This document shows, one piece after another, positions 18,499-42,059 of a stretch of 45,121 nt of DNA. Position 1 is the stretch's first letter. Every line of letters starts with the position of its first letter. The position numbers and the translations under genes are program-made. The stretch comes from an uncultured bacterium (GTDB taxonomy: Bacteria > Hydrothermota > UBA3072): positions 1 to 45,121 of the forward strand of contig CAYYUB010000001.1 in the NCBI GenBank assembly GCA_964474855.1, read 5' to 3'. The notes under the pieces are model-generated. The model was not told where the DNA came from. It saw nothing but the letters and a program-made list of their open reading frames with translations, and did no database searches.

Positions 18499-18527
18499 TT
18501 TTTCCCTCCTAGTTTTGTTATGATATC

Positions 18528-21500: not shown

Positions 21501-22646
21501 CCCGGGAAGATATTGGGGGTAGTCACCAAAGACCGTATTACAGCGGATGTTGCTATCAGCGTCAACAGCAACCGGAAAAAGACCTAAACGGCGTTCGAAC
21601 ATATGTTTGACCGAGATAGTCATCGTTGCAATATGCCAATAGTTACTATCTTTATCCATAAATGTGCAACCATGTCCCGCCCCTGAGATAAAACCGGTCG
21701 GTTTAAATGAAAAAGGACTGTACGTCGCATATTGAAAGGGTCCTTTTGCTGAATCGGATGATACGTAGATACCATCTGCATACGTTTTGAACTCCGTTCC
21801 TGGGGCAGCATAATGAAGGTAGTATTTATTATTTATTTTGTTCATCCACGCTCCCTCAATCCAAGGTACTTCATCCAACAAATTATCATCTCCTCGTCTT
21901 TCCCACCCATGTGATGAAGCCATTGAAAAAACCAAGTCGACTTCACTACCTTTTTCCTGAAATGTTGTGGGGTCGAGTTCAACCATACGAATATTCGCAA
22001 TGGTTGTTGAATTAGTTAGTCCATGATACATATATAACCTTCCATCATCATCGAGGAAAAGAGCCGGATCGCCATACGATCCAATACTTGGTCCTTCCGT
22101 CCAAACACCCGATTTAGGGTCGGCAGTCTTGTAGATTGTACCAGTTGCAGAAGGAGCATAATATACAGTATCCCCTATAACTAATGCAGCAGGTGCATAA
22201 CTTTCGATGTCGATACCAGTCGGAATAATAAGTGTCCAATTATGAAGATCTGTGGAAGTCCAATAGCCACCTGAGCGAGAAGCAAAAAGATAATAGTCAT
22301 CTTCGAACAAAATTACAACCGGGTCAGCGGCTTCACGGGCATCAATTGCATCAGACATAAATCTATAATTTAGATTTAAAGGATTACAGAAGGTTTGTTG
22401 CGCCTTAGCAGTCTGTGTTGCCAGAAGTAAACCGCATAACAATTGAAAGTATAAAATCCTGGCTCTCGGCGTTATTGGTTTTCGGATATTATTTTTGAAA
22501 GTGCTTAATATACAAACGCTGTCCGGCTTTTTTGCTAGTATTTTGCCTATGGCAACACTTGATGCACTGAGTAAACATGCTTTAAAAATAGAATATAGAA
22601 AAGATATTGAGATACTAAAACCAATTGTTAAAATTAATACTATCAT
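18528..22646 (-). CDS. 1372-aa T9SS cargo: GH43-like five-bladed propeller, F5/8-type C (CBM32-like), Fn3, about 650 aa of beta-helix-like repeats, and a T9SS CTD
   Basis: FCNPLNLNYRF...DPVVILFEDDYYLFASRSGGYWTSTDLHNW (clan GH-F). YWSAQSGDPGEWMLIDLGKECDIEAIQVNF (discoidin). VVRWDTVSNADGYVIRYG (Fn3). G/T/S/N-rich repeats (ININGDF...GGSINITGGQFSISGG...). CTD NYPNPFTSVTFIEY...LKVYNALGQEI...GVYFYRLTA...KKLLLVK. AGGAGG SD 7 nt before the ATG at 22646. Confidence 0.85.
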   Translation of the reverse strand: MIVLILTIGFSISISFLYSIFKACLLSASSVAIGKILAKKPDSVCILSTFKNNIRKPITPRARILYFQLLCGLLLATQTAKAQQTFCNPLNLNYRFMSDAIDAREAADPVVILFEDDYYLFASRSGGYWTSTDLHNWTLIIPTGIDIESYAPAALVIGDTVYYAPSATGTIYKTADPKSGVWTEGPSIGSYGDPALFLDDDGRLYMYHGLTNSTTIANIRMVELDPTTFQEKGSEVDLVFSMASSHGWERRGDDNLLDEVPWIEGAWMNKINNKYYLHYAAPGTEFKTYADGIYVSSDSAKGPFQYATYSPFSFKPTGFISGAGHGCTFMDKDSNYWHIATMTISVKHMFERRLGLFPVAVDADSNIRCNTVFGDYPQYLPGIESDPIDDNFAGMLLLSHKKFVTASSSLDGYGVENAVDEDARTYWSAQSGDPGEWMLIDLGKECDIEAIQVNFAEHNTVPSLVRGRDNILYERYIIENSNDGMNWDTLVDKSLNTQDVPHDFIELASTAQARYIKLTNIFTPGEGNFAVRDLRVFGNSNQAVFTPVAGFTVERDTDERNAVVRWDTVSNADGYVIRYGIASDKLYNNYMVYDVDSIEIHSLNAGVDYYFSVEAFDGGTDYYYSVGEFRSFESGPWNDVNTWEQYDGSAWINPASSIPNLSDGVIKILSGDTVTVTATDSIDQVIISSDGYLVINPGVTLLVKDGLGADLAVSGTLINYDSITQDISATISFLDGSRYVHERNGGSIPVSRWGKGSTCEVSSVTSESPSGLGQNFYHFTWDCLGQASDVSMGWNGDTILGNINIQNTGTGLWQLCTPTAGTPAVININGDFNQISGTVAAHMSNEGGTSVTINQGGSINITGGQFSISGGTQGGTGTTVWNLSGGNFSTSDASIQSVTTTPLGAGFVFKKAGVQSLNIGSGNTIDALPIEVDSGTTLNIGTSELTGSGHFILDSGATLETAHANGIDGNIQQIGDTIILSKSANYTYNGIVAQVTGSLLPDTANNLTLNNSMGLTLSGDVVVNGVMEMKDGLLLSVSEVLSYGEDGALKYSGSSDQTTAELEFPVVEGPKDLIISNNSGVNLHSTRQIRGNLNLGGKLVLGANALTARSATTESVTTAFVNTDGGGKLLLPVGNSTEVLYPIGASGGSTVSYCPLWITNNGDYDTISVGAVMDTTYQTTKPRIKLKWNIAEGAVDGGDYDLKFGWNPSSLHENNLFRSSREDNARIFLMGSDTTEAGSGDYEFNFTTRPYTVKRGGISELGMFAFVIGKFKDSVWTGVQIAEKPISYRLKQNYPNPFTSVTFIEYELPKDEKVDLKVYNALGQEIAVLERGKKEAGYHKVEWKASNLPTGVYFYRLTAGSFTGIKKLLLVK

Positions 22647-22832: not shown

Positions 22833-24261
22833 GTTGTTTTCATGCAATATGCCACATATTATTTTCAGAATAAATGTCATATTTTTATCCGTAAGATCTG
22901 TGCTTTAAAATATTCTCTATTAATTTCTCTTTCTTCACAAGAGAATTCTCCTCCGATATTTCTGTTTGATAGATAACTTTACCTTCATACAAAATCCATA
23001 TTGTACCTTCGGAAGATACTCTTACTTCTACTTTCTTTCTATATGGATTAAGTTTCCTCCTCGTTAGAGGAAGGAGTATCTCCTGTTTACAGAAACTTAT
23101 TGTGCTATCGTTTGATACACTCCTCACATACCTCCTGGTAAATACTAAATCAAGATTTATACCTCTATCACTTCTATAAACACTTCCTTCCACTCTTGGT
23201 CTTCTTTTAAATCTTTTATTCCAGTAAGAAATGAATACATCCCGGAGGAAACCATTTGCTTCTCTATAGTCTCTTATTTTTGCCAACCACATCTCATTTA
23301 TAAGTCTATCCTGGAGTGTTCCCAAATCCCTCTCTATCCTTCCTTTTGCCTGAGGAGAATTCGCAGGTATTAAGGTGATACCAAGATCTTTTAATATCTT
23401 TTCTATATGAGTCTCTTCATGTTCAATACTAACGTTATAATGTAATCCCCCATATCTGGTAGTTTTGAAATGGGAAGCTTTATCAACATACAAAGACATA
23501 AAAATTCCTTTATTTTCAACAACTTTCCTTATAACTTCCATATTGTTAAAGGAGGTATCTTTATAAAAAAACTTTGCAAATAAAAGTTCATTTGTGGCAT
23601 CGTCTATCATTGTTATGAGATACCAATCCTCCGGAATATTTTCCAACCATTGATAAGAAGGAAAGAATCCATCTGTATGAGCATTCCTTCTCTCGGCATC
23701 CGTTTTCTCCTTTTATAACCGCTATTTCCTTTTCTCTTTTTAGGTTTATGAAGTCTTTTTTCTATTAAAATATTCCTAATCGTACTGTAAGCAAAGATGA
23801 ATACCCTCTAAATCATTTAGCTTCTCATTGAAATGGGCTATATTAAATCTACTATCGTATTTCCTCTTAAATAAACCTGAAACTCTTTCTTTCAATAGGT
23901 TCGAAATACCTTTTCTTCCGCCTCTCTTCTTTGAAACAATCCCTTCAAGTCCTTTTTCTTTAAAAGCTCTTTTTAATCTTAAAGCGTGCCGATAACTGAT
24001 CCCTAAAAGTACGCTTACTTGATTACCTGTTATTTCTCTTTTAAGCCAGCTATTGATTATTTCATGTCTTTTAATATCTTTCATAGTAAGGGAATACTTT
24101 TCCAAGGTTACCTCCTTTTTCACAAAGGGGTAACCTTTTTTCTATCTTTTTTAATACAAAAAATATAAACCAGTTATTATAAATAAATGTCATGTTTTTC
24201 CTCTCAAATGCGACATTTATTTATGAAATTAAAATAGGACATTTATTTATAATAATGACAC
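22832..24261 (-). mobile_element. Decayed insertion sequence of about 1.43 kb, rve/DDE transposase, IS1202-group (ISNCY)-like
   Basis: Both ends begin TGT (TGTTGTTTTCAT at the left, reverse complement TGTCATTATTAT at the right). Subterminal AATAAATGTC motifs occur in inverted orientation near both ends (22869-22878; 24186-24196, 24226-24236, 24242-24251). Flanked by the 16-17 bp direct repeat. Carries an HTH-plus-integrase-core transposase. Confidence 0.75.
22885..24123 (-). pseudogene. Transposase (N-terminal HTH plus DDE integrase core) interrupted by two frame disruptions
   Basis: Track ORFs 23776..24123 (HTH part) and 22885..23646 (DDE part: ITMIDDATNE, LYVDKASHF, SPQAKGRIERD). A third frame between them reads AYSTIRNILIEKRLHKPKKRKGNSGYKRRKRMPREGMLIQMDS. 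Joining the three pieces needs shifts near 23793 and near 23661-23666, giving a protein of about 410 aa. Confidence 0.75.
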
Positions 24262-24278
24262 CAACTAATTTTTACCCT
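24262..24278. repeat. Right copy of the 16-17 bp direct repeat flanking the IS
   Basis: Exact repeat of 22816-22832. Confidence 0.75.
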
Positions 24279-24305
24279 TGACAATTACCAGATAATTATT
24301 ATGAT
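24278..24305 (+). promoter_or_regulatory. Candidate sigma70-type promoter (TTGACA-N16-TATGAT) at the IS/right-arm junction
   Basis: TTGACA at 24278-24283 and TATGAT at 24300-24305. It lies about 450 nt upstream of the receptor gene in AT-rich DNA, so a chance match is quite possible. FCB-group promoters may also differ from this consensus. Confidence 0.2.
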
Positions 24306-24757
24306 AAATCATATGGAAATATTTAGCTCAAATAATTTGATATGCCGGAATTTATTAACTTATGGTTATAAAGTTGTCCATATGCTGATTAGAAAATAAG
24401 GTAAAGAGCAATTGAATTATCGTGATTTTAAAAATTATATAATAGTTAAATATTGAAAGTAATAAGAGTAATGTTTGAAGAGTTATATAGTAAAAGTAGA
24501 GAAGTGTTTTTTTGTTAGGCTCACTGAAGTAAGGAGGGCATGATAAAAATTATAGGTGAGAAAGTTTGGGTGTTATCTATATCTATGTTTATTCTGTTTT
24601 ATCCGTGTGGTCAAAATTCTATCGAGAGGTTTCAATGTAGTTTGAATCATTATCCAAAATCTAAGGAGGTTTATAAGGCAAGAATGTTTGTCGAGTTTTT
24701 TGCGTTTAAATCAACTGGTTTAACTTATTTTGTAAACCCTAATGAAAGGAGGTTTTC

Positions 24758-27700
24758 ATGAAAAAAGCGGAAAGGGGAAGAGAGTTGTTGCCCAGGTGGA
24801 TTTTATATAGTTTGCTTGTATTTGTTGCGTTTTTTATGGTTACTCAAGATGCGAAAACGGCGGTCACCGGAAAGATTGCTGGTGTCGTCGTGGATGCTAA
24901 AACCGGTGAGCCTCTACCTGGTGCCAATGTTGTAATCGAGGGTACCGATAGAGGAACTGCCTGTGATGTGGATGGTTATTACTTCATATCAAGATTGGAT
25001 CCGGGTAATTATAGCCTTCAGGCCAGAATGATGGGTTATAAAACTCTTACGATGACCGGTGTTAGGGTTATATCAGGACATACTACTCCTGCCGAATTCC
25101 AGTTAGAGGCGACGGTTATAATGGGTGAAGGAGTGACTGTCCAGGCTGAGAGAGAAGTTATTAAGATGGACCTTTCTTCCGGTTTTTTCGTTGCGGATAA
25201 AAGTGAAATAGAAGCTGTTCCTCTTATCTCAGACGTGAAACAATATCTCAACTTACAGGCCGGGATGGCAGGCTGGAGTGTTAGGGGTGGTGGTCAAGGT
25301 GAGACCAAATTGCTGGCTGATGGTTTACTTCTTGTCGACCAGAGAGTAAACGAACCTATCATGATGCCCAACCTGAGCGAGATAAAAGAGGTAAGGGTGG
25401 AAAAAGGAGGGTTTGCCGCAGAATACGCGAATGTTCGTTCGGGAGTTATAAATGTTGTAACCAGAGAAGGTTCTCCCGGAAAATACGAAGGTTCCTTTGA
25501 ATTCAGATATACTCCCGGTTATCAAAAGCACAGCGGTAATTCTGTCTTTGACCCTGATAATTATAATAATGCGGTGTATTTATGGAACAAGCTGGATACT
25601 GGTTATTTGAATATTGTGCTGGATACGTTAGGTGATATTATTTCTCAGGATACGGTTATTAAATATGACAGCGTTTGCTGGAAAGGCCCTAGGGCCGTAT
25701 GGGGGGATGAAGACAGCCCGTTTTACGATACACTTAAATATGAACATTATCAAGGATTTATGACATTTGGTGGATGGATATATGAGGTAAGAAGAGATAC
25801 GAATATTACTACTGCTGAAATGCAGCGTGATAGATTTATGTGGATGCGCCGTATTAATGTACCCAGAACAGATTCTCTCTTATTAATCTATAACGGTGGT
25901 GATTCCATTTATGCTCCGATTTATCAAGATGATACTTTATTGATAGGTTATGAAAAGGTTGCTTATGATTTTAGTGATCAGGATAGGACTGGCGAATACG
26001 GCAATAAGCCGGATTGGACCTTGGACGCTGGCTTTGGTGGTCCCATTCCCGTTATTGGCAGTTATTTAGGGGATATGACATTTTATACTTCTTACAGGGA
26101 CCATAATGAAGCGTTTGCTATTCCGGACAGCAGGGATTATTACAGAGAACGCCAGACAAGTTTAAAGCTGACTTCTCGTTTTGGTAACTTTAAGGTAAAT
26201 ATGAAGGGTGCCCACTCAATTATTAATTCCCTTTCCCCGTACGGCGAGGGTCACATGTGGCAAGGGGATTATCCCTCGGGGGAAATCGGACAGGGCTACC
26301 TCCGAGGCGGGTCGGATATGTTGTTCGGCGTTGCGCATTATGCTGGAAGATGGCACGGCAGTAATAAATTAAATGGCGATCAGCTGTACAGAGTAAATGC
26401 GTTAACCCCGTTCGATATTACTTCCAGAATGTACGGTCTCGCGCTGCAGCATGCTTTGTCAGAGAATACTTTTTATGATGTACATTTGACTTATCTACGC
26501 AGGAACAATAGGGCTCAATACAATTATGATGTGCCGACTCGTATGATGGGAGATACAGTGGTGCTGTGGTTTGCAGATAGTATTGGAGAAACTAAATATG
26601 CTGTGGACGACGTCCCGTATGGTTGGGCTCACCCTCTACATGAAGACAACTATGGTGCTGATGCTAGTGGCAAAGCGTCATTCGGTTTTTCCCATCAATG
26701 TGGAACCTGGAATACTTCCTGGGCACAGACCTATAGCGCGAGTTTCGGTATGAACTCACAATTAAATAAGTACAATCTGATAAAATTCGGTTTTTCGTTT
26801 CAATATGATAAACTGCATGAATATTTTATTACCAATGAGGGATGGTTCTGGCCGGAGGAAGGCGAAGACCCAACCGAGTCGAGTGAGGGTTATTTTGTTA
26901 ACTATAGTTCATATCCTATTCTTGCGGGCGGCTATATTCAGGACAAGATTGAATTCGAAGGAATGTTTGCCAATTTTGGTTTGAGGTTCGATTACTCGGA
27001 CCCAAATATCGAGTGGCCAGATACTACAGAGAGATATTCGCTTTTCCTTTCTTCATGGTTTAAAGATTCTTTGTTTACTCAGGGTCCTGTGGAAGGCGTG
27101 GCTTCTACCTTTCAGATAAGTCCTCGACTTGGAGTTTCATTCCCGGTATTGGAAAAAAGCAAGTTGTTCTTCAATTACGGACATTTTTACTCCCTGCCAA
27201 CCAACGAGAACAGGTATAAGGTTATCTGGGGTGCACCGGGTGATCCGATTAGTTTCCTGGGGAATCCGCGTCTTACGATGGAGAGGACAGTTTCTTATGA
27301 GGTGGGTCTTGAAAGCAGCATAGCTAATACTTACTTAGCAAGGATTTCGGGTTACTATAAGGATACAGATAATGAGAGCGGTACGGTTAAATATTTAAGT
27401 TATTACGGAGATGTTAATTATACAACTAATGAAAATACCGGCTATGGCGATACAAGGGGTTTTGAATTTGAGTTTAGGAAAGACCATGGAAGATTTTTTA
27501 CTGGGTGGGTAAATTATGATTACATGGTGCACACATCAGGAAGAATTGGATTAAGGCAAAATTATGAGGATCCGCTGTTACAGTCAAATGAGGCAAAGGT
27601 AGACCCCAAGGAGGATAAACCCCTTCCGCAGCCAGTTTTCAGGGCTCTATTTACATTGAAGGTGCCTCAGGATTGGGGAATATTTTTAGGAGGTTATAAT

Positions 27701-28165
27701 CTTTCATTTTCGTATCAATGGAGAGCGGGTTACTATGATAGGTTTAATCCTTATGGTGGGGATTTTGATGAGGTTTTGGCAAATAATATCCAATGGCCGG
27801 CTACGCGTATTATAGATGTGAGTATAAACAAGAGTCTTTCGATCGGCGGTGCTACAGCTAATCTGTTTATGGATGTGCACAATATTTTTGACTGGGGTAC
27901 TCTGGATGCTCAAGGCTTCGACCCTTCTTTGACTGGTGGCGTAGACCGAATTGAATATCTTAAATCCCTTCATCTCGAGATCTTTGATGAGGAACCTTTT
28001 GTGGATGATGAATCGGTAGTCGGTCCTGAAGAACTGGGAGTCGAACCGGATCACGTTGGAGATTTGCGAAGTGCTGATAAACCATATATAAATAATCCCA
28101 ATAGAGATTACCTTTGGTACCTTGACCCCAGATATGTGCAGTTTGGAATAAGGTTCTCTTTTTAG
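24758..28165 (+). CDS. TonB-dependent outer-membrane receptor with N-terminal carboxypeptidase-regulatory-like domain (not obviously SusC-type)
   Basis: GKIAGVVVDAKTGEPLPGANVVIEGTDRGTACDVDGYYFISRLDPGNYSLQARMMGYK (CarboxypepD_reg fold). Plug-like VTVQAEREVIKMD...IEAVPLISDVKQYLNLQAGM. Long beta-rich barrel ending in the aromatic terminus VQFGIRFSF. AGGAGG SD. Confidence 0.85.
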   Translation: MKKAERGRELLPRWILYSLLVFVAFFMVTQDAKTAVTGKIAGVVVDAKTGEPLPGANVVIEGTDRGTACDVDGYYFISRLDPGNYSLQARMMGYKTLTMTGVRVISGHTTPAEFQLEATVIMGEGVTVQAEREVIKMDLSSGFFVADKSEIEAVPLISDVKQYLNLQAGMAGWSVRGGGQGETKLLADGLLLVDQRVNEPIMMPNLSEIKEVRVEKGGFAAEYANVRSGVINVVTREGSPGKYEGSFEFRYTPGYQKHSGNSVFDPDNYNNAVYLWNKLDTGYLNIVLDTLGDIISQDTVIKYDSVCWKGPRAVWGDEDSPFYDTLKYEHYQGFMTFGGWIYEVRRDTNITTAEMQRDRFMWMRRINVPRTDSLLLIYNGGDSIYAPIYQDDTLLIGYEKVAYDFSDQDRTGEYGNKPDWTLDAGFGGPIPVIGSYLGDMTFYTSYRDHNEAFAIPDSRDYYRERQTSLKLTSRFGNFKVNMKGAHSIINSLSPYGEGHMWQGDYPSGEIGQGYLRGGSDMLFGVAHYAGRWHGSNKLNGDQLYRVNALTPFDITSRMYGLALQHALSENTFYDVHLTYLRRNNRAQYNYDVPTRMMGDTVVLWFADSIGETKYAVDDVPYGWAHPLHEDNYGADASGKASFGFSHQCGTWNTSWAQTYSASFGMNSQLNKYNLIKFGFSFQYDKLHEYFITNEGWFWPEEGEDPTESSEGYFVNYSSYPILAGGYIQDKIEFEGMFANFGLRFDYSDPNIEWPDTTERYSLFLSSWFKDSLFTQGPVEGVASTFQISPRLGVSFPVLEKSKLFFNYGHFYSLPTNENRYKVIWGAPGDPISFLGNPRLTMERTVSYEVGLESSIANTYLARISGYYKDTDNESGTVKYLSYYGDVNYTTNENTGYGDTRGFEFEFRKDHGRFFTGWVNYDYMVHTSGRIGLRQNYEDPLLQSNEAKVDPKEDKPLPQPVFRALFTLKVPQDWGIFLGGYNLSFSYQWRAGYYDRFNPYGGDFDEVLANNIQWPATRIIDVSINKSLSIGGATANLFMDVHNIFDWGTLDAQGFDPSLTGGVDRIEYLKSLHLEIFDEEPFVDDESVVGPEELGVEPDHVGDLRSADKPYINNPNRDYLWYLDPRYVQFGIRFSF

Positions 28166-28191
28166 AAGAGAAGAAAAGGAGGTTATTGAAA

Positions 28192-30534
28192 ATGAAACAT
28201 AGGAAGTTATTAATATTAATTTTTCTGCTGGCCTTTTTCCGGGTGGGTGGTGTCCATGCCCAGATTGTTAAACTGGTCAAAGTGGGAAAAACTGAAGCCA
28301 GGATATATGACCATGGCTGTCAAAGCAGTGAAGTTTGGGATTATGGTATGGTTGCGTACTATAGAGGCAGTTACTGTACTGTGGAGGATGAGATTGGTAG
28401 TACGAACTCGTGGCCAGGAGGGTTACTTAAGGATGCCGGATTGCTTTTTGGGGCTCGAAACTGGGAGGATACAACCGGACAAATATGGGATGCTTATATT
28501 ACAGGAAGTTGCGCTCGTTTACGTGACCTTGATATTTATCAATTTGCTGTTCCGGATGAAGGGGGTTTGACAATACACAGGTATATGAGGTATCCTCTTC
28601 CGCAGATAATTGTGGATGGAGATCATTGTGAAGATCCATTTCCTACGTCTGGAGATGAGGTGGCGCCCGAAAAAATATGGGGAACTGCCGATGTAATGGT
28701 CGAGTCCAACGTCAGGATGAGCATGGGTCTGGATGTTAAGCAGAGAGTGTTAGCCTGGAGTCAGCCCGGACATGATGATTACGTTATATGGGATTGGACA
28801 TTTGTAAATACGGGTAATGTAGATAGGGATCCTGAAATCGAGCTCCCGGATCAAACATTAGAGGATGTTTATATTGCCAGAGTTACCGAGGCTATGGTAA
28901 ACGGTATCGGGGACAATAAAGCACTGAGTACCTTTGCAGGAACAACAGAAAACCATGACACGACACTTGCTTATCCTCAAGGTCACGATTCTCTTCGGAT
29001 TGATTATATTACTCCTCTTAGAGCAGGTGGTTTATCGAGAGATAGTTATGGTTTTAACGCCGGAGCTGGTAATTGGAGTGTTCTGACCGGAGCCCGTTTT
29101 GCTGGCTCGGCGGTTTTATTTGCCCCTAAAAGTATTGATGTTCCGCAGAACTATCCCATTTCAGATATTGCCGCAAGTAATGACCCTGCCCAGCCATGTA
29201 TGCATACAAGTATGCTGGCGGAGCCCAGCTGGATTTTATTGCACAATGGAATATTGGCTGATTTTAACACAATGACACCCCAGGACCACGTTGATGCTTA
29301 TGAGGTTATGGTGAAGGGAGTATTTGGTATTGACACAACAATTCCTAATTATGAAGAAGCTTATTATATGGATAGTCTTTATGATGTTTACGATACTACA
29401 GCTTCCGGACACAAGACTCATTACGAACAACCCATAGATAGATGGGGAGAGCTAGATCCGGATAGGGGATATGCCTATGCCTCAGAAATCTCGTGGATCA
29501 GGTTTGACCAGCAAGGTCATTTTTCAATAGGACCTTACCAGATGGAATTCGGGGATACTCTGAGATATGTCTTTGCCTATGTAGGTGGTGCCATAAGCAG
29601 GAAGACTTCATACCTTCTAGGTGAAGCGTGGGATGGTGGGACAGCGGCTTCTTGGCTGCCAGGTATGGATTCGGCTCAAATGGTAGAAGAGTTGAAGAGA
29701 AGAGACCCTATATTCAACGTTTATTATGATATCGGAGGTTTAACTCCTACACCTTCTCTTAATGATATAGCGAAAGACCTGTTGGTGGCTAGAGGCAGAG
29801 ATTCTCTTTTCAACAACGGAATGAACGCGCAGAGAAACTTTAATATGAATTATAATATACCCGTTTCTACTGCACCTCCTTCCGTTTTTGAGGTTAATTC
29901 CAGGCCCGATATGATAAGGCTGGCATGGAGTTATGAGCCTGCTTATGAACCTTCACCTTCGGATATTGCAAAGTTTAAAATCTACAGAGCTTTAGGCGGA
30001 TATGTATATGAGAAGCAAGACGTGATAGTAATAGGCGATTGGCAATTGGTCGACTCTGTTGATGGGACTGCAAGACTATATGAAGATAGGGGTGTTACTC
30101 CGGCTGTTTATTATTATTACGCGATTACAGCCGTTAGCCCCGCGGGAATTGAAAGCGGAATGTATTTGACAATGACCAAATTAGCGGCAAATTTACAAAC
30201 TTATCCGGGTGACAGTCTCGAAATGGTAAGAGTTGTCCCAAATCCTTTGAATGTTAATTCTTCGGCACGTACGAGGTACAGTGAAGGAGAGGGACTAAAA
30301 CTAACCTTTGTTGAGTTGCCTCCCGAATGCACAATTACTGTATTGACAGAATCGGGAAATCTGGTGACAACCATCAATCATACCAACGGAAGCGGAACGG
30401 AAGTATGGGACATTCGTAATCAATTTCTTATTACGGATTCCGATCAGCTTCCGGTGAGCGGTATTTACATCGCACATATACAGGATGATAATACTGGCGA
30501 AAGCGTTTCCCGCAAGTTCGTAATAGTAAGATAA
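28192..30534 (+). CDS. Secreted protein of unknown function (about 780 aa) with an Fn3-like module and a T9SS/FlgD-Ig-type C-terminal domain
   Basis: Track ORF starts at TTG 28186. The ATG at 28192 is better spaced from the AAAGGAGG SD. Type I signal peptide MKHRKLLILIFLLAFFRVGGVHAQ with no lipobox Cys. C-terminus VRVVPNPLN...CTITVLTESGNLVTTI...EVWDIRN...VSGIYIAHIQ...RKFVIVR resembles CTD sorting domains. I recognise no motif in the first ~550 aa. Confidence 0.7.
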   Translation: MKHRKLLILIFLLAFFRVGGVHAQIVKLVKVGKTEARIYDHGCQSSEVWDYGMVAYYRGSYCTVEDEIGSTNSWPGGLLKDAGLLFGARNWEDTTGQIWDAYITGSCARLRDLDIYQFAVPDEGGLTIHRYMRYPLPQIIVDGDHCEDPFPTSGDEVAPEKIWGTADVMVESNVRMSMGLDVKQRVLAWSQPGHDDYVIWDWTFVNTGNVDRDPEIELPDQTLEDVYIARVTEAMVNGIGDNKALSTFAGTTENHDTTLAYPQGHDSLRIDYITPLRAGGLSRDSYGFNAGAGNWSVLTGARFAGSAVLFAPKSIDVPQNYPISDIAASNDPAQPCMHTSMLAEPSWILLHNGILADFNTMTPQDHVDAYEVMVKGVFGIDTTIPNYEEAYYMDSLYDVYDTTASGHKTHYEQPIDRWGELDPDRGYAYASEISWIRFDQQGHFSIGPYQMEFGDTLRYVFAYVGGAISRKTSYLLGEAWDGGTAASWLPGMDSAQMVEELKRRDPIFNVYYDIGGLTPTPSLNDIAKDLLVARGRDSLFNNGMNAQRNFNMNYNIPVSTAPPSVFEVNSRPDMIRLAWSYEPAYEPSPSDIAKFKIYRALGGYVYEKQDVIVIGDWQLVDSVDGTARLYEDRGVTPAVYYYYAITAVSPAGIESGMYLTMTKLAANLQTYPGDSLEMVRVVPNPLNVNSSARTRYSEGEGLKLTFVELPPECTITVLTESGNLVTTINHTNGSGTEVWDIRNQFLITDSDQLPVSGIYIAHIQDDNTGESVSRKFVIVR

Positions 30535-30546
30535 GGGGGAGGAAAG

Positions 30547-31536
30547 ATGAAGAAATTTATTGTTTTTATATCTATATTAGTAGTTAATCTTTCTTTTAGT
30601 GCATACGCAGTGGATAAGGTTGCCCAGACAGGATGCGGATTTTTAGATGTTGCTGCGGGTGCTCGGGCCTGCGGAATGGGAGAAGCATTTACTGTATTAG
30701 GCCAGGATGCCACCGCGCTCTTCTATAATCCTTCAGGTATTGGAAAAATCGATGCCAATATCGATTTATGTGCAGGTGGAACTCAGTGGATCGCCGATAT
30801 TAATTATCTCTATCTGGCTGGTGTCTTTAATGCCGGAGTTTGGGGAAATTTCGGTTTTAGCCTTATAACTCCTGATTATGGAGAATTTTACGGCACGACG
30901 GTGGCTGAAGGTACTGAAGCAGGCTATGAGAATACTGGTCTCTTTCATGTGCACGCATTTTGTGCGGGTGTAGCTTATGCCAGAGAATTCACCGATAAGT
31001 TTACGGTCGGAATTCAGGCCAAATACGTTTCTCAACATCTTGGAGAGAATGAATTTATGGTAATTGAAGATGTTGACACTTCATTTGTAAACAGACAAAA
31101 CGAAATTTCGACTCCGTCTTACGACTTCGGATTGCTTTTTTACCCCGGTTTTAAAAGTTTCGCTTTTGGTATGTCTGTTAGAAATTTCTCTCCCAGGGTA
31201 GCTTATGAACAAGTTGGTTTTGAATTGCCTTTAACTTTTGCTCTTGGTGTAGGCATGGATGTTCTGGATCTTTTTGGTGAGTATCCCGATTATTCTTTTA
31301 ACATTGGAGCGGATATGTTACATCCTCGCGATTGGCAGGAACTTTATCACGTGGGAGCAGAATTCTCGTTTAAGAATATGATTTTCCTCCGAGCCGGATA
31401 TAAATTTAACTATTACGCGGAAGGTTTAAACGCGGGAGTTGGTATTGAGTTAAACGGCGTGAAAATCGACTATTCATACAGCAAGCACGATTTGTATGAC
31501 ATGGTCAATAGAGTCTCCGGCGGATTTTCATTTTAG
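30547..31536 (+). CDS. PorV/PorQ-family (FadL-like) outer-membrane beta-barrel protein
   Basis: Signal peptide, then GFLDVAAGARACGMGEAFTVLGQDATALFYNPSGIG, the N-terminal signature shared by the PorV/PorQ/UPF0164 barrels. Alternating beta-strand pattern and aromatic C-terminus (VSGGFSF). GGGGGAGG SD. Confidence 0.65.
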   Translation: MKKFIVFISILVVNLSFSAYAVDKVAQTGCGFLDVAAGARACGMGEAFTVLGQDATALFYNPSGIGKIDANIDLCAGGTQWIADINYLYLAGVFNAGVWGNFGFSLITPDYGEFYGTTVAEGTEAGYENTGLFHVHAFCAGVAYAREFTDKFTVGIQAKYVSQHLGENEFMVIEDVDTSFVNRQNEISTPSYDFGLLFYPGFKSFAFGMSVRNFSPRVAYEQVGFELPLTFALGVGMDVLDLFGEYPDYSFNIGADMLHPRDWQELYHVGAEFSFKNMIFLRAGYKFNYYAEGLNAGVGIELNGVKIDYSYSKHDLYDMVNRVSGGFSF

Positions 31537-31635: not shown

Positions 31636-33036
31636 ATGATTTCTGAATCGCAGAATATATCTCTAAAAGAGAAGATTGGCTATGCTCTGGGTGATACTGC
31701 CTCGAACCTGTTTTTTCAGACATTTATTCTGTTTATAACTATCTTTTATACGGATGTTTTTGGTATCTCAGCCAAAGCAGTGGGAACTATGTTTTTAATT
31801 ACCAAGATATGGGATGCCGTCAATGATCCGATGATGGGTATGCTTGCCGATCGTACGCAAACACGCTGGGGTAAATTTCGACCCTACATACTCTGGTTTG
31901 CCATACCGTTCGGTTTAATTGGAGTATTAACTTTTACTACACCCAATCTTAGTACGGGTGGTAAGCTCATTTACGCCTACGTTACGTATACGTTGTTGAT
32001 GATGCTTTATACAATTGTAAATGTCCCTTATTCGGCGTTAATGGGTGTTATCACTTCCAATGCTAGAGTTCGAACCATAGTCTCGCAGTTTCGTTTTGTA
32101 GCTGCTTTTTTTGGAGGACTTATCGTTCAATACTCGGCCCTGCGTATGGTTCAAAGATTTGGAGCGGGAAACGATGCTTTAGGCTGGCAGAGGGCAATGA
32201 TTGTTCTTTCCTCTTTGGCTGTTGTGCTTTTATTTGTTACTTTTGCATCGACGAAAGAAAGGGTCAAGCCTCCGAAGGGACAGAAAACCCGTTTGAAGGA
32301 CGATTTGCGTGATTTATCTAAAAATAAACCGTGGTTAATGATTGGTGGTGCGACCGTATTCCAGCTTATGTTTATTCTTATTCGAACCGGCTGTATTATG
32401 TTCTATTTTACTTATTTTGTGCAGGATCAGCAGGTAATGCTTTTAGGTAAGGCCTATAGTTTTTCTTATCAGGGTATGGTGTCTGTCTTCTTTATGGCAG
32501 GTTCGGTTGTCACAATTCTGGGATCCATTCTTGCTGGCTGGTTTAGCAAGGTTTTGGGTAAGCGGAATACTTATGCCGGTTTTTTAGGTGCCAGCGGTAT
32601 ATTCGCAGCACTTTTCTTTTTCTTAGGCCCGAATGATATTATTCTAATGTTTGCTTTTCAGCTCCTTGTATCTTTTGCATTGGGTCCTGTGTCGGTGCTG
32701 CAATGGGCTATGTACACGGATACAGCCGATTATTCGGAACTGGAGACCGGAAGGCGTGCAACAGGGCTTGTGATGTCTGCTTCGCTATTTGCGCTTAAGC
32801 TTGGTGTAGCTCTTGGTGCCTCTATTTTAGCCTGGATCCTGTCCGGGTATGGTTATGTGCCCAATGTGCAGCAGACAGCAACATCACTTTTGGGTATAAG
32901 AATGGCAATTAGTATTTACGCGGCTATTCCTGCCCTTATTGGTGCAGGAATTATGTTCTTCTATCCTTTGACTAATGAAAGGATGGTTGAAATTGAAAAG
33001 GAATTAAACGCCAGACGTAGCTCTGAAACAGCTTAA
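31636..33036 (+). CDS. Glycoside-pentoside-hexuronide (GPH):cation symporter, xyloside/oligosaccharide transporter candidate
   Basis: About 12 hydrophobic segments. GPH loop motif WDAVNDPMMGMLADRTQTRWGKFRPY. AAGGAG SD. Confidence 0.85.
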   Translation: MISESQNISLKEKIGYALGDTASNLFFQTFILFITIFYTDVFGISAKAVGTMFLITKIWDAVNDPMMGMLADRTQTRWGKFRPYILWFAIPFGLIGVLTFTTPNLSTGGKLIYAYVTYTLLMMLYTIVNVPYSALMGVITSNARVRTIVSQFRFVAAFFGGLIVQYSALRMVQRFGAGNDALGWQRAMIVLSSLAVVLLFVTFASTKERVKPPKGQKTRLKDDLRDLSKNKPWLMIGGATVFQLMFILIRTGCIMFYFTYFVQDQQVMLLGKAYSFSYQGMVSVFFMAGSVVTILGSILAGWFSKVLGKRNTYAGFLGASGIFAALFFFLGPNDIILMFAFQLLVSFALGPVSVLQWAMYTDTADYSELETGRRATGLVMSASLFALKLGVALGASILAWILSGYGYVPNVQQTATSLLGIRMAISIYAAIPALIGAGIMFFYPLTNERMVEIEKELNARRSSETA

Positions 33037-33208: not shown

Positions 33209-34633
33209 ATGAATTCTGAAACACAGAGTTTGTCTATAAGAGAAAAGATCGGTTACAGTCTTGGTGATTCTGCTGCTAACTTCTATTTTCAGATATACAT
33301 CGTTTTTCTGTTCTATTTCTATACCGATGTGTTTGGTATTTCTGCCTCAGTCGTTGGAACAATGTTTTTGGTCTCTAGAATATGGGATGCGGTAAATGAC
33401 CCAATGATGGGTGCCCTAGCTGATCGAACTAAGAGCCGCTGGGGAAAATTTCGTCCGTGGATATTGTTTACGTCTTTCCCTCTGGCTGTCTTTGGAGTGT
33501 TAGCTTTTACTACTCCGGATCTTAGTACCGCCGCTAAAATAGTATATGCTTATGTAACGTACAATTTTCTTATGATATTTTATACTGCCAATAACGTTCC
33601 ATATTCGGCATTGATGGGTGTTATGACAGGTGATACGGATGAGCGGACTGGTCTTGCTTCCTGGCGATTTACCTTTGCGATGGGGGCGGCACTAGTGATT
33701 CAGGGTTTGATGTTGCCTCTTGTCGGTAAATTCGGAGGCGGTGATGAGGCTAAAGGCTTTATGTTCGCTATGTTATTCTTTTCTTCTCTGGCTTTGGTAT
33801 TCTTGTTAACTACATTTTTCACCACGAGAGAAAGAATAAAACCTGACCCGAGTCAAAAGACTTCAATAAAACAGGATTTATCTGACCTCTTTAAAAACCG
33901 CCCATGGCTTACCATGTTCATCGCTACAATTTTCGTATTTATCTATTGGTCTATCAAAGGAAGCGTAGGACTTTATTACACTAAATATTTTGTTAATCTT
34001 GAGAGTCTACAGAACTTCCTGCAGATTTTTGGTCTGGCTCGAAGCCCGGATGCAGATGTTGTTAAAGCAGGATTTACATTTTATAGTGTTGCCGGAAACC
34101 TTGCAATGATAATTGGAATACTCTTTGCCAAACCTTTTGCTGTTAGATTTGGAAAAAAGAATGTTTTCAGGTCGTGTTTATTCCTGGCGGCGTGTTTCAC
34201 AGTTGTGTTCGTATTTTTAGCGCCAACAGCAGTTTTGTGGCAGTTTATCTTTAACATTCTTATTCAACTATCCTATGGGGTTACGGTTCCCCTGCTCTGG
34301 GCTATGATTGCTGATGTTGCTGATTTTACCGAATGGAAGACTCACCGACGAGCTACAGCTATGACCTTTGCCGGAATTTTGTTCGCTCTTAAACTGGGGC
34401 TTAGTCTTGGCGGTTTCGTTACCGGAAAGCTTCTTACTTTTTATAAATATGTTCCCAATGTCGCACAAAATGCTTTTACACTCCGTGGTATTCGTTATAT
34501 GATGAGTATTATTCCTGCTGTTGCGTTTTTCCTCGCTGTGGGTGCGGTTTTTTTCTATATAATAGATAAGAATATGGAACATAAAATCCAGGAAGAGCTA
34601 ACCGAACGTCGCAAGCAGTACAAATTTGATTAA
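33209..34633 (+). CDS. GPH:cation symporter, tandem paralogue of the preceding gene
   Basis: WDAVNDPMMGALADRTKSRWGKFRPW. The N-terminal half is clearly alignable to the upstream paralogue. AAGGAG SD. Confidence 0.85.
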   Translation: MNSETQSLSIREKIGYSLGDSAANFYFQIYIVFLFYFYTDVFGISASVVGTMFLVSRIWDAVNDPMMGALADRTKSRWGKFRPWILFTSFPLAVFGVLAFTTPDLSTAAKIVYAYVTYNFLMIFYTANNVPYSALMGVMTGDTDERTGLASWRFTFAMGAALVIQGLMLPLVGKFGGGDEAKGFMFAMLFFSSLALVFLLTTFFTTRERIKPDPSQKTSIKQDLSDLFKNRPWLTMFIATIFVFIYWSIKGSVGLYYTKYFVNLESLQNFLQIFGLARSPDADVVKAGFTFYSVAGNLAMIIGILFAKPFAVRFGKKNVFRSCLFLAACFTVVFVFLAPTAVLWQFIFNILIQLSYGVTVPLLWAMIADVADFTEWKTHRRATAMTFAGILFALKLGLSLGGFVTGKLLTFYKYVPNVAQNAFTLRGIRYMMSIIPAVAFFLAVGAVFFYIIDKNMEHKIQEELTERRKQYKFD

Positions 34634-34766: not shown

Positions 34767-35930
34767 GTGAGAGGGTTAAGGTTAGCAGGTGTCTTATCTT
34801 TAAGCGTTATTTTGACCGGTATGATTAATTGCGTTACGTGCCGCAGTGTTCAAAAGCAAGAAATAAGTATTCAAGAGCCCAAATTAAAAGACGTATATAA
34901 AGATGCTTTTTATATCGGAACGGGGCTGGATAGTACCCAGATATATGGCGGCGACCAAAGAGCGCTTGCAATTATGAAGGAACAGTTCAACGCGGTTACG
35001 GCTGAGAACATTATGAAGTGGGAAAAGTTGCAGCCTGAGTTGGGTAAGTATTATTTTACAGTAGCTGATAGTTTCGTTAGTCTGGGTGAAAGGAATCAAA
35101 TGTACATTGTCGGACACGTTCTGCTCTGGCACTATCAAACGCCCGAGTGGGTTTTTCAGGATACGTCCGGAAATTTGGTAGATAGGGAAACACTTCTGAT
35201 GCGTATCCGTGATCATATTCATAATGTGGTAGGTCATTATAAAGGAAGGGTAGGTTCGTGGGATGTCGTAAATGAAGCGATCGACGATAACGGAGAGTGG
35301 AGAGAGAACCTCTACTACCAGATTATCGGGAAAGATTATGTTCAGAAAGCATTCGAATATGCCCGTGAAGCAGACCCTGATGCAAAGTTAATTTATAATG
35401 ATTATTCGTTGACTAATAGGGTGAAAAGGGATGCGGTGATTAAAATGGTCAGGGAATTACAGAGAAAGGGTGTAAAGGTAGACGAGATTGGAATGCAGGG
35501 ACATTATCATCTGGATTATCCTTTGCTTGATTCTCTTGAAGAAAGTATTGTAGAATTTTCGGAACTTGAAGTAAAAATAGCGATTACAGAGTACGAAATA
35601 AATGTTCTTCCCCGGCCGGATGATGAACAGCTTGGTGCGGATATTTCCCTGAATTATGAAATGCAAAAGAAGTACGATCCGTTTCCTGATTTCTTTCCTG
35701 ATTCAATGCAGCAAAAATTGGCTGACAGGTACGTTGATTTTTTTAAAATTTTTATAAAACATAAGGATAAAATTAGTAGAGTAACCATATGGGGTGTTCA
35801 CGATGGACAATCTTGGACTAATTTTTGGCCGATTAGAGGAAGGACTAACTATCCTTTGCTTTTTGATCGGCAGTACGAGCCAAAGGCAGCATTTGATGCG
35901 TTGATCGAAATTGGCAAAAAGAACAAATAA
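34767..35930 (+). CDS. Glycoside hydrolase family 10 endo-1,4-beta-xylanase, exported (signal peptide, possible lipoprotein)
   Basis: GTG start after AAGGAAG. AENIMKWEKLQPELGKYYF, GHVLLWHYQTPEW, WDVVNEAID (acid/base), KIAITEYEINV (nucleophile region). N-terminus LSLSVILTGMINC. Confidence 0.85.
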   Translation: MRGLRLAGVLSLSVILTGMINCVTCRSVQKQEISIQEPKLKDVYKDAFYIGTGLDSTQIYGGDQRALAIMKEQFNAVTAENIMKWEKLQPELGKYYFTVADSFVSLGERNQMYIVGHVLLWHYQTPEWVFQDTSGNLVDRETLLMRIRDHIHNVVGHYKGRVGSWDVVNEAIDDNGEWRENLYYQIIGKDYVQKAFEYAREADPDAKLIYNDYSLTNRVKRDAVIKMVRELQRKGVKVDEIGMQGHYHLDYPLLDSLEESIVEFSELEVKIAITEYEINVLPRPDDEQLGADISLNYEMQKKYDPFPDFFPDSMQQKLADRYVDFFKIFIKHKDKISRVTIWGVHDGQSWTNFWPIRGRTNYPLLFDRQYEPKAAFDALIEIGKKNK

Positions 35931-36007
35931 AAGTTATTGAGAGAACGTTTCGCAGTAGTGGATTTATTAAGAGGCGTTTTTATTCTCAATTGCAAGGAGG
36001 TTAGATT

Positions 36008-37612: not shown

Positions 37613-37633
37613 GCTCTTTAAGGAGAAAGTAAA

Positions 37634-38719: not shown

Positions 38720-38790
38720 GGGTAAGATGCTAAACAGTATGTTGGACTTGACATTAGACTCTTATAGGATATTATTCTGCAAAAACCTAA

Positions 38791-38933
38791 TTAACCACAG
38801 AGGACACAAAGAAATAATTATGTTAAAAAAAAATACTAAGGACACAGAGAAAAGAAGGAAATAAAAACTCTGTGCTCTCTGCGGTAAAATATTTAGGTGT
38901 GGAGTTGTGTGGGCTCTGTGGTTTGATTTTTTT
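38791..38933 (+). repeat. CACAGAG-core repeat copy 2 with inverted partner copies, forming nested hairpins followed by T7 (REP-like element or candidate intrinsic terminator)
   Basis: AACCACAGAG(38793-38802)/CTCTGTGGTT(38914-38923) plus CACAA/TTGTG form the outer stem. CACAGAG(38843-38849)/CTCTGTG(38868-38874) form the inner stem. TTTTTTT at 38927-38933. Confidence 0.55.
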
Positions 38934-38979
38934 ACAAAAAGAACAAAAAGTTGATCGGTGAAACTATAAGGAGATTAAA

Positions 38980-40194: not shown

Positions 40195-40223
40195 TAAAAA
40201 AAGAGGAGATAAAGGAGATAAAA

Positions 40224-42047: not shown

Positions 42048-42059
42048 GGGGGCTATTAT

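Follow-up and report, generated by a model that had tools for sequence, protein, structure and literature searches.

In a 45,121-nucleotide stretch of DNA from an uncultured bacterium of the Hydrothermota (GTDB lineage UBA3072; positions 1 to 45,121 of contig CAYYUB010000001.1, assembly GCA_964474855.1), referred to here as the window, we analysed three adjacent genes, g1, g2 and g3, which encode a TonB-dependent outer-membrane transporter, a protein without a Pfam or NCBIfam family and a β-barrel of the PorV/PorQ family. On balance we lean towards the view that this trio is a three-part outer-membrane module for nutrient capture and import, in which g2 would be exported through a type IX secretion system (T9SS), tethered by g3 and placed at the service of g1. 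This view draws on the recurrence of the three genes in one order, on a g2 tail that resembles the tail of the T9SS protein PorZ, and on the co-occurrence of that tail with g3. The trio looks like an undescribed alternative to SusC/SusD, with the surface partner held by a protein barrel and not by a lipid anchor.

Anatomy of the trio and the link between tail and barrel

A preliminary description of the window had claimed that the three genes are tightly spaced, that each has its own Shine-Dalgarno sequence and that they head a xylan-catabolic operon. We observed the same: the three open reading frames (ORFs) lie on the forward strand (Table 1) with intergenic gaps of 26 and 12 nt, preceded by AAAGGAGG (g1), AAGGAGG 9 nt before the ATG (g2) and GGGGGAGG (g3), and they are followed by genes for two MFS_2 transporters, a kinase and the glycoside hydrolase (GH) families GH10 (twice), GH43, GH3 and GH116. 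An alternative in-frame TTG for g2 at position 28186 lies 3 nt past AGGAGG, too near the Shine-Dalgarno sequence, and is an unlikely start.

The transporter g1 has a signal peptide, a CarboxypepD_reg N-terminal extension (residues 40-128, positions 24875-25141, 66 bits) and a large β-barrel with the C-terminus ...FGIRFSF, ending in Phe. The plug (PF07715, residues 169-224, positions 25262-25429) is weak in the window copy, with 15.4 bits vs. a threshold of 23.9, and residues 721-924 of this copy match TonB-receptor NCBIfam models. Among 35 orthologues the plug is found in 28 (best E 5e-11), TonB_dep_Rec_b-barrel (PF00593) in nine and OMP_b-brl_3 (PF14905) in 13, supporting the earlier assignment of g1 as a TonB-dependent receptor with a CarboxypepD_reg domain. 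The family profile also matches the plug regions of the solved transporters 9gbc, YncD and PqqU, and the barrel of PhuR. A stretch conserved between the N-domain and the plug, GE.VTV.AERE, is a candidate TonB box. As a SusC/RagA protein g1 was rejected, with 58.5 bits on TIGR04056 (cutoff 368.25) in an alignment limited to residues 39-155, i.e. to the N-domain.

The barrel g3 scores 169.5 bits on the PorV/PorQ family model NF033709 (cutoff 90) over model positions 1-325 of 326, has a signal peptide ending in ...FSAYA/VDK (the slash marking cleavage) and terminates in ...GGFSF. All 44 orthologues match the PorV family model. The sole solved relative is the F. johnsoniae PorV of the SprA-PorV complex (6h3i_F), which is matched with an E-value of 3e-7, or 2e-20 when a profile of the 44 orthologues is used. 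The scores are under the equivalog cutoffs for PorV (NF033710, 73.3 vs. 250), PorQ (NF033711, 69.7 vs. 220) and PorV2 (NF052325, 54.9 vs. 325), and g3 can be placed, from these sequence models, in a separate paralogous branch of the PorV/PorQ family. On PorP/SprF models it remains below the cutoff of TIGR03519 (41.5 bits vs. 90.55) and passes that of the broader Pfam model PorP_SprF (PF11751, 51.6 vs. 22.3). A generic porin, BamG or FadL was rejected for g3: PorV/PorQ scores are far higher, the BamG model gives 17 bits vs. a cutoff of 250 (E 0.0018) and TodX matches are weak, so that the PorV/PorQ-type barrel of the preliminary description stands.

The middle protein, g2, carries a type I signal peptide ending in ...GGVHA/Q, with no Cys and with Gln as the mature N-terminus, in line with the 780 residues and the missing lipobox noted before. 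AlphaFold2 (AF2) modelled this region as a helix (residues 2-18) followed by a low-confidence stretch (19-22). The missing lipobox is a property of g2 and not of the organism, because GH10 and GH43, encoded next to the trio, carry signal peptides of the lipoprotein type. In the WOR-3 clade, mature g2 starts almost always with Gln after A-x-A (VHA/Q, AHA/Q, AYA/Q), and in deeper clades D, G, F or V stand in its place. A Gln-first mature protein resembles the 'Q-rule' of signal peptidase I substrates in Bacteroidota.

The full-length AF2 model of g2, built on a 53-sequence alignment, has a predicted local distance difference test score (pLDDT) of 87.7 and a predicted template modelling score (pTM) of 0.88, and shows a β-rich N-domain with a helical subdomain, a fibronectin type III (Fn3) domain, a linker and a terminal β-sandwich at ~700-780. 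Modelled alone, the N-domain reaches a pLDDT of 90.2 and a pTM of 0.92. Only the Fn3 domain was matched in a sequence-profile search of the PDB (3mpc_A, an Fn3-like protein, E 7e-4), and Foldseek against the PDB with the whole model returned Fn3 tandems and nothing else. With the N-domain, Foldseek gave weak matches (template modelling score (TM) 0.25-0.34, 7-9% identity, root-mean-square deviation >10 Å) to a GH15-like dextran dextrinase, GH94 phosphorylases, GH116, GH63 and copper amine oxidase, which we read as a shared β-supersandwich architecture in the predicted fold, and not as family membership. No Pfam family matches g2 at E <= 0.1, and NCBIfam models give weak matches to its tail only. 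The helical part is too small for a catalytic (α/α)6 barrel and no enzyme sequence models match; thus, g2 appears to be neither SusD-like nor a recognisable enzyme, and it hits none of the SusD/RagB or enzyme families that would have contradicted the preliminary description.

Two identities proposed for g2 were rejected. As SusD/RagB it has no match to PF07980, PF14322, PF12741 or PF12771, no lipobox, no SusD among the Foldseek results and a β-rich fold instead of an all-α tetratricopeptide repeat (TPR) fold; as a known glycoside hydrolase or polysaccharide lyase (PL) it has no GH or PL match in Pfam or NCBIfam, and the PDB profile search gave Fn3 alone. Variation within the family is greatest in the N-domain (mean pairwise identity 0.32-0.38), which may be the ligand-binding or transporter-facing domain. 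Many of its acidic residues are invariant (D155, D195, D196, D201, E217, D266 and D284).

At its C-terminus the window g2 follows the pattern RVVPNP...KLTF.ELPPECTI.V.TESGNLV.TI.H.NGSGTE.W...SGIYIAHI...G.S..RKFVIVR, which has the end motifs of a type-A sorting domain, PNP, G-x-Y and K-x-x-x-(R/K), in RVVPNP ... SGIYIAHI ... RKFVIVR-stop. AF2 folds residues ~705-778 into a β-sandwich (pLDDT 75-93). When only the last 105 residues are scanned, TIGR04183 gives 24.7 bits (cutoff 23), and PF18962 gave no match on the window g2. Across the family two kinds of C-terminus were found: a minority of ordinary type-A tails that pass PF18962, and, in most members, a longer and highly conserved variant with the consensus RVVPNP...K.xF..LP..CTI.I.TESG.LV.T..H..GSG.E.W...SG.YIA.I...G.....KF.I.R. 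At E <= 0.01, TIGR04183 matches 39 of 47 variant tails and all 12 ordinary ones, in keeping with the C-terminal domain (CTD) resembling T9SS sorting signals that had been noted in g2. The C-terminus of the PorZ model matches 30 of the 47 variant tails (best E 1e-10) vs. none of the 12 ordinary tails, and that of the PorU model eight and two, respectively; type-B CTD models (TIGR04131/PF13585) were not among the g2 matches in the Pfam and NCBIfam scans. These matches suggest that g2 ends in a derived sorting domain of T9SS type A, whose specific likeness is to the tail of PorZ.

The kind of tail goes together with the presence of g3. In a count of distinct sequences that extend downstream for 1.1 kb or more, g3 comes after g2 in 59 of 61 cases with a variant tail and in none of the four with an ordinary tail (Fisher p 2e-5, kinship ignored), which, together with the PorZ matches, strengthens the earlier idea of a dedicated PorV-like partner. 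The two exceptions are L047, where two g2 genes stand in tandem, and L089, where a second g1-g2 pair lacking its own g3 lies directly after the g3 of the preceding trio. One ordinary-tail lineage (L012/L013) keeps g1 and has no g3, and another has neither; among the variant-tail cases with room upstream, 48 of 50 have g1 before g2. Within g2, conservation is highest in the tail (mean pairwise identity 0.54), and among whole proteins g3 ranks first (0.49), followed by g1 (0.44) and g2 (0.39).

Distribution and genomic contexts

Homologues of g2 number in the hundreds and are nearly all unnamed, the few names given indicating candidate division WOR-3. In the neighbourhoods of homologues with 47%, 37% and 34% identity we found the same order of CarboxypepD_reg transporter, g2 homologue and PorV-like barrel. 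Species-representative genomes contain more than 479 confirmed stretches encoding relatives, from which 77 loci were kept. Using iterated hidden Markov models (HMMs) for g1, g2 and g3, built from six-frame ORFs on 90 loci, we identified 47 distinct complete trios that read g1-g2-g3 along a single strand. The median gaps are 18 and 13 nt, and the recurrence of this order is more than chance. The trio spans at least eight bacterial phylum-level groups, Ignavibacteria among the lineages represented; the record titles among the kept loci include WOR-3, KSB1, Calditrichota, Neomarinimicrobiota, Melioribacter species, the cultured Stygiobacter electus and Bacteroidota/Cytophagia metagenome-assembled genomes (MAGs), with a few MAGs labelled Lentisphaeria, Planctomycetota or Actinomycetota (bin labels taken as given). 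Single MAGs supply four or five of the kept loci, and on some contigs (L014, L015, L016, L089) whole trios are duplicated in tandem. A profile search of 1.84 billion cluster representatives returned 482 proteins at E <= 1e-30 and 3966 at E <= 1e-10, some of them Fn3-only matches; many of these relatives have ~700 residues and match best over the C-terminal 250, and one distant relative, P0177, also sits between a transporter and a PorV-like gene.

To characterise the contexts we scanned the two ORFs just 3' of each trio (82 ORFs) with Pfam. They comprise 11 with a GH51 arabinofuranosidase C-domain, nine MFS_2 sugar symporters, five proteins with T9SS tails, four sulfatases and two each of GH29, GH31, GH95 and GH63-like proteins. 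The richness in GH51, MFS_2, sulfatases and other GHs indicates that many trios head loci resembling polysaccharide utilization loci (PULs). The synteny check called for in the preliminary description thus finds the trio in dozens of genomes of many phyla, often beside genes for carbohydrate-active enzymes (CAZymes).

Other contexts were seen as well. In a Calditrichaceae MAG (CAYLYM010000029.1; L006/L041) a trio lies directly 5' of genes for GWxTD-domain, TamB-like and BamA (Omp85/POTRA) proteins, i.e. of outer-membrane biogenesis. The stand-alone g2 relatives with ordinary tails (L002, L009-L011, L035) have a distinct conserved neighbourhood ~5.7-6.4 kb downstream, with a protein of ~1300 residues without Pfam match and a FecR/Fn3 protein of ~1020 residues that matches the g2 HMM.

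Homologues also occur in the cultured Rhodothermus marinus. In tblastn searches of plasmids the window g2 found no match, and the distant, GC-richer relative P0180 found a trio on plasmid pRMAR01 of strain DSM 4252 (RMAR_RS14120, 14115, 14110), homologous in the same gene order to g1 (E 5e-37), the g2 tail (E 1e-11) and g3 (E 2e-25). Its middle protein has 1132 residues, shares weak collinear N-domain motifs with g2 and keeps the D195/D196 motif only in part. At this locus (L093, NC_013502.1, 2835-21117) the trio is followed by genes for a peptidoglycan-recognition family protein and a serine hydrolase, an FG-GAP repeat protein is encoded before the transporter, and a type I-U CRISPR-Cas system (cas7u, csb2) lies ~4 kb away. 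On the chromosome, a published figure of the alginate utilization locus shows a TonB-dependent receptor gene (2805 nt), hypA and hypB in this order, followed by alginate lyases; hypB (1056 nt) is labelled 'PorV/PorQ family protein', and the text calls the trio genes hypothetical and proposes no function (PMC9530828). We liken this locus to the window trio by its published gene order and labels alone. The R. marinus copies thus have the same three-gene order, in contexts of alginate (chromosome) and of peptidoglycan recognition and serine hydrolase (plasmid), not of xylan. Xyn10A, a xylanase of R. marinus, is reportedly attached to the cell by its CTD, and a comparable tail is present on a xylanase from Melioribacter roseus (PMC6539836), which indicates that T9SS-type sorting operates in these lineages.

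The preliminary description knew of no characterised system with this architecture. Our full-text literature searches, with most subscription journals lying outside them, found no functional description of a trio of TonB receptor, CTD protein and PorV-family barrel, and the Caldithrix abyssi genome paper does not discuss the trio; to this extent the statement holds, but it has to be narrowed, as the principle of a cognate barrel is known (PMC10202324) and the trio had been drawn, as described above, in PMC9530828.

A proposed module for capture and import, its alternatives and its known counterparts

In the mechanism that we favour, g2 would cross the inner membrane by Sec, using its type I signal peptide, and the outer membrane by the T9SS, using its C-terminal β-sandwich. 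g3 would pick up g2 at the translocon and tether it in the outer membrane beside g1, and the g2 tail would stay uncleaved on g3, like the PorZ tail on PorQ and the PorU tail on PorV. The variable N-domain of g2 would then recognise the substrate and hand it over to g1, acting as a TonB-energised channel. From the operon context the substrate here would be xylan or xylo-oligosaccharides, and the pathway could be completed by GH10 and GH43 as periplasmic lipoproteins, by the pair of MFS symporters and by a cytoplasmic GH10, GH3 and GH116. The preliminary description had likewise proposed that the T9SS, and not lipidation, delivers and anchors a glycan-binding surface partner, and our computational results support this reading. 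We infer here T9SS export, retention of the tail, contacts of g2 with g3 and with g1, and binding of a glycan or other ligand. Use of the T9SS by this organism is suggested by two GH43 proteins of the window with PF18962 tails, and the organism does use lipidation, as the adjacent GH10 and GH43 signal peptides are of lipoprotein type. Moreover, cognate PorV-like barrels are known to retain and anchor CTD proteins, with their genes clustered with those of the cargo (PMC10202324).

Several observations weigh against this mechanism. On TIGR04183 the whole g2 scores 19.1 bits, below the cutoff of 23, and a profile-profile comparison of variant with ordinary tails gave a probability of 3%, with an ordinary-tail alignment of little diversity. 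The g2 N-domain has no recognisable carbohydrate-binding module and its fold matches do not exceed a TM of 0.34, and residues that are invariant across differing contexts could mean a common structural or catalytic role rather than substrate-specific binding. Some g2 relatives stand without g1, and some trios adjoin non-CAZyme genes, namely those for transglutaminase/DUF3857, for GWxTD, TamB and BamA, or for peptidoglycan recognition and a serine hydrolase. The three proteins diverge together (r 0.86-0.96), which is not evidence of contact because shared ancestry largely explains the correlation. Finally, FadL/PorV-like barrels also act outside the T9SS, as BamG in the Bacteroidota β-barrel assembly machinery (BAM) binds a surface lipoprotein (PMC12578637).

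Could g2 act on its own account? The many invariant acidic residues and the weak fold similarity of the N-domain to GH15-like, GH94 and GH116 proteins would suit a T9SS-delivered surface enzyme or adhesin of new fold, tethered by g3 and independent of import, with g1 co-regulated and no SusD-like handover, and such a role would also agree with those relatives that have neither g1 nor g3 beside them and end in an ordinary secretion tail. We think it unlikely, however, given that g1 stands before g2 in nearly all variant-tail cases (48 of 50) at gaps of ~18 nt, that no GH or PL Pfam model matches and the helical part is below the size of an (α/α)6 barrel, and that the D195/D196 motif is kept only partly in the R. 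marinus plasmid homologue. A reversal of the transport direction, in which an Oar-class g1 would move g2 outward, as Myxococcus Oar does with PopC, while g3 holds g2 and the T9SS is unneeded, is very improbable. The domain architecture of g1 is indeed that of the Oar class (PMC6434023), g1 and g2 are inherited together and the T9SS dependence of g2 is unproven, but the CarboxypepD_reg-Plug-barrel architecture is also that of SusC importers, a folded multidomain protein of 85 kDa is implausible as a passenger of a 22-strand barrel, and the context is a catabolic operon with inner-membrane sugar symporters. In addition, g2 relatives with ordinary tails exist without g1, so that a transporter of this kind is not required for the g2 family to arrive where it acts.

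PorV belongs to the FadL superfamily, and the weak TodX and BamG matches (E 0.0018 for the latter), together with the finding that BamG-type barrels scaffold other outer-membrane proteins outside the T9SS (PMC12578637), would allow g3 to be a FadL-type channel or a BamG-like scaffold for g1, with g2 periplasmic or loose and its C-terminal β-sandwich merely Ig-like. Yet g3 scores far higher on PorV/PorQ than on BamG or FadL-type models, its presence follows the tail type of g2 and not g1, as the L012/L013 lineage kept g1 and lost g3, and the g2 tail is specifically PorZ-like; we regard this role of g3 as improbable. A small share of our expectation is left for an explanation that is neither the capture and import module nor any of these alternatives.

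As a putative capture and import module the trio invites comparison with SusC/SusD, the textbook model of glycan uptake in Bacteroidota. Like SusC/SusD (RagA/RagB), it consists of a CarboxypepD_reg transporter followed by a non-enzymatic-looking partner of ~700 residues, heads CAZyme and sugar-transporter operons and occurs in many diverged paralogous copies per genome. It differs in that g1 fails the SusC/RagA model, that g2 is a β-rich non-lipoprotein with Fn3 and CTD instead of an all-α TPR protein, and that there is an obligatory third gene, for a PorV-family barrel. No SusC-family or SusD-family gene was found among the ORFs of the window in the Pfam and NCBIfam scans. The locus is thus not a PUL in the strict Bacteroidota sense of adjacent susC-like and susD-like genes beside CAZymes, but it does have the functional layout, with an outer-membrane transporter, a partner and CAZymes.

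Close counterparts of the g2-g3 pair are PorZ-PorQ and PorU-PorV of Porphyromonas gingivalis, where a PorV-family barrel binds the type-A-like tail of a surface protein and keeps it. In the T9SS, PorZ and PorU are the two proteins with uncleaved tails, bound to PorQ and PorV, and cognate PorV-like barrels encoded beside their cargo are thought to protect and anchor cargo tails (PMC10202324), a pattern to which the g2-g3 pair conforms well. The likeness lies in the g2 tails, 30 of 47 matching the PorZ and eight of 47 the PorU C-terminus, and in the g3 orthologues, all 44 of which match both PorQ and PorV models. In contrast, g2 reaches 18.6 bits vs. the PorZ cutoff of 260, g3 is far under the PorV and PorQ cutoffs, and the g2-g3 pair is multi-copy and found with a TonB transporter in catabolic loci, and is not a single housekeeping part of the T9SS. 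Type-B CTD cargo with PorP/SprF-like barrels (SprB-SprF in Flavobacterium johnsoniae, PG1035-PorP) is likewise encoded by adjacent genes, the barrel being needed for secretion and anchoring and the tail being probably uncleaved (PMC10202324). There the likeness is the adjacency of cargo and barrel genes and the Pfam PorP_SprF match of g3 (51.6 bits), whereas the g2 tail is type-A-like (TIGR04183), g3 fits PorV/PorQ better and the known pairs serve gliding adhesins.

Two further systems resemble a single component. The Oar-class transporter of Myxococcus xanthus, implicated in PopC secretion, combines a CarboxypepD_reg N-extension, a plug and a 22-strand barrel (PMC6434023); g1 resembles it by domain architecture only, and Oar is implicated in protein export and has no PorV-like partner or CAZyme context. 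In BamG-BamH of the Bacteroidota BAM, a FadL/PorV-like 14-strand barrel is the platform for a surface-exposed protein (PMC12578637), but BamG, which is essential and present in a single copy, has a lipoprotein and BamA as binding partners, and g3 matches the BamG model only at 17 bits.

What is already known, then, is a TonB transporter with a surface partner on the one hand and a cognate PorV-like barrel that holds a CTD protein on the other, and because the latter is known (PMC10202324) we see in the architecture a new combination and not a wholly new principle. We found described nowhere a conserved, multi-copy, CAZyme-linked cassette of three genes that fuses both principles across many phyla of the Fibrobacterota-Chlorobiota-Bacteroidota (FCB) group, nor the g2 partner family, which has no Pfam or NCBIfam family, nor its distinct class of PorZ-like tails.

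A bolder proposal, which we hold only tentatively, is that the three proteins form a stable outer-membrane machine, which serves as the main importer of glycans and nutrients in the FCB phyla outside the Bacteroidia (WOR-3, KSB1, Calditrichota, Marinimicrobia, Ignavibacteriota and Rhodothermota), with a T9SS-delivered lid or binding protein docked by its PorZ-like tail onto its own PorQ/PorV-like barrel next to a TonB-dependent transporter. If so, a protein anchor would replace the lipid anchor of SusD, nutrient uptake in these phyla would depend on type IX secretion, and in evolution the trio may be a counterpart to SusCD or the older of the two. To our knowledge, glycan uptake is largely unknown in the uncultured FCB relatives that are dominant in sediments, the deep ocean and hot springs. 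The module would also link TonB-dependent import to type IX secretion, fields usually studied apart, and would carry the principle of the cognate PorV-like barrel, known for gliding adhesins and for housekeeping parts of the T9SS, over to nutrient uptake. On a practical level, the trio is a widespread, multi-copy, CAZyme-linked candidate for this role and would serve as a marker of PUL-like loci where SusD-based searches give nothing. Its g2 family is unannotated, with a confidently predicted fold and no close solved match, and the homologues in the cultured R. marinus, including those in the studied alginate locus, offer a route to experiments.

Leader region and neighbouring genes of the window

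Upstream of g1 we found a promoter-like site at 24278-24305, matching at 11 of 12 positions, and an ORF of 73 codons (24540-24761) whose stop overlaps the ATG of g1 (ATGA). Promoter and terminator scans gave results near the shuffled expectation and are informative only on the absence of terminators between genes: no terminator-like site was detected in the two trio gaps or in the 99 nt after g3. A leader block at ~24713-24757, TTTAACTTATTTTGTAAACCCTAAT..GAAAGGAGGTTTTCATG, is common to paralogous trios in DNA alignments, and the C-terminal ~40 codons of the leader ORF recur directly 5' of g1 in eight paralogous or orthologous trios (L036, L031, L029, L018, L038, L032, L055 and L015). The leader (24540-24761; 24560-24757) is better kept than g2, with 72% over 39 codons in L036, whose g2 is ~47% identical. 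It could be a 73-residue upstream ORF or a DNA or RNA regulatory block, TTTAACTTATT[GTT]TTGTAAACCYTAAT..GAAAGGAGGTTTTCATG; two more AGGAGG boxes lie upstream of this putative regulatory block.

Table 1. Positions of the trio, its parts and the neighbouring features in the window
Feature	Position	Strand	Details
Large GH43 with T9SS tail	16243-18621	-	Pfam
Large GH43 with T9SS tail	18528-22646	-	Pfam
Insertion sequence (IS)-like remnant	22885-24123	-	115-aa HTH_28/HTH_29 ORF and 253-aa ORF without Pfam match
Leader and putative promoter region of the trio	24278-24757	+	Promoter-like site, conserved block, small ORF
g1	24758-28165	+	1135 aa, TonB-dependent outer-membrane transporter
g2	28192-30534	+	780 aa counted from ATG
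g2 signal peptide	28192-28257	+	Residues 1-22, type I
g2 N-terminal domain	28258-29856	+	Residues 23-555; β-sandwich region 26-340, helix/hairpin subdomain 341-555
g2 Fn3 domain	29869-30141	+	Residues ~560-650; profile and Foldseek
g2 C-terminal β-sandwich	30217-30534	+	Residues 676-780 and stop; putative derived PorZ-like type-A T9SS sorting domain
g3	30547-31536	+	329 aa, PorV/PorQ-family (FadL-like) outer-membrane β-barrel
MFS_2 glycoside/cation symporter-type inner-membrane transporter	31636-33036	+	Pfam PF13347, E 6e-91
MFS_2 glycoside/cation symporter-type inner-membrane transporter	33209-34633	+	Pfam PF13347, E 6e-88
GH10	34767-35930	+	Pfam; lipoprotein-like signal peptide
GH43 β-xylosidase	36008-37612	+	Pfam; lipoprotein-like signal peptide
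Second GH10	37634-38719	+	Pfam; without signal peptide
PfkB kinase	38980-40194	+	Pfam; without signal peptide
GH3	40185-42047	+	Pfam; without signal peptide
GH116	42060-44633	+	Pfam; without signal peptide

The forward-strand genes from 34767 to 44633 point to xylan-type catabolism, i.e. of xylan or xylo-oligosaccharides. The signal peptides of the first GH10 and of the GH43 end in ...GMINC and ...ILTNC; in both, Asn occupies position -1 of the putative lipobox, which may be a lineage-specific lipobox variant.

Upstream of the trio, on the opposite strand, are eight CAZyme genes, comprising GH42, GH3, GH31, GH97, GH3, GH95 and the two large GH43, both of which carry canonical PF18962 T9SS tails above threshold (40.4 and 40.8 bits). 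The domain orders of the two GH43 proteins are GH43-GH43_C2-CBM6-CTD and GH43-F5/8 type C-Fn3-long β-rich region-CTD (1372 residues). As listed, their ORFs overlap by 94 nt, and the start of the downstream gene is probably at a later codon. The IS-like remnant stands between the two divergently transcribed CAZyme sets, where the GC content falls to 0.34, and the GC skew flips its sign near 24 kb, tracking gene orientation.

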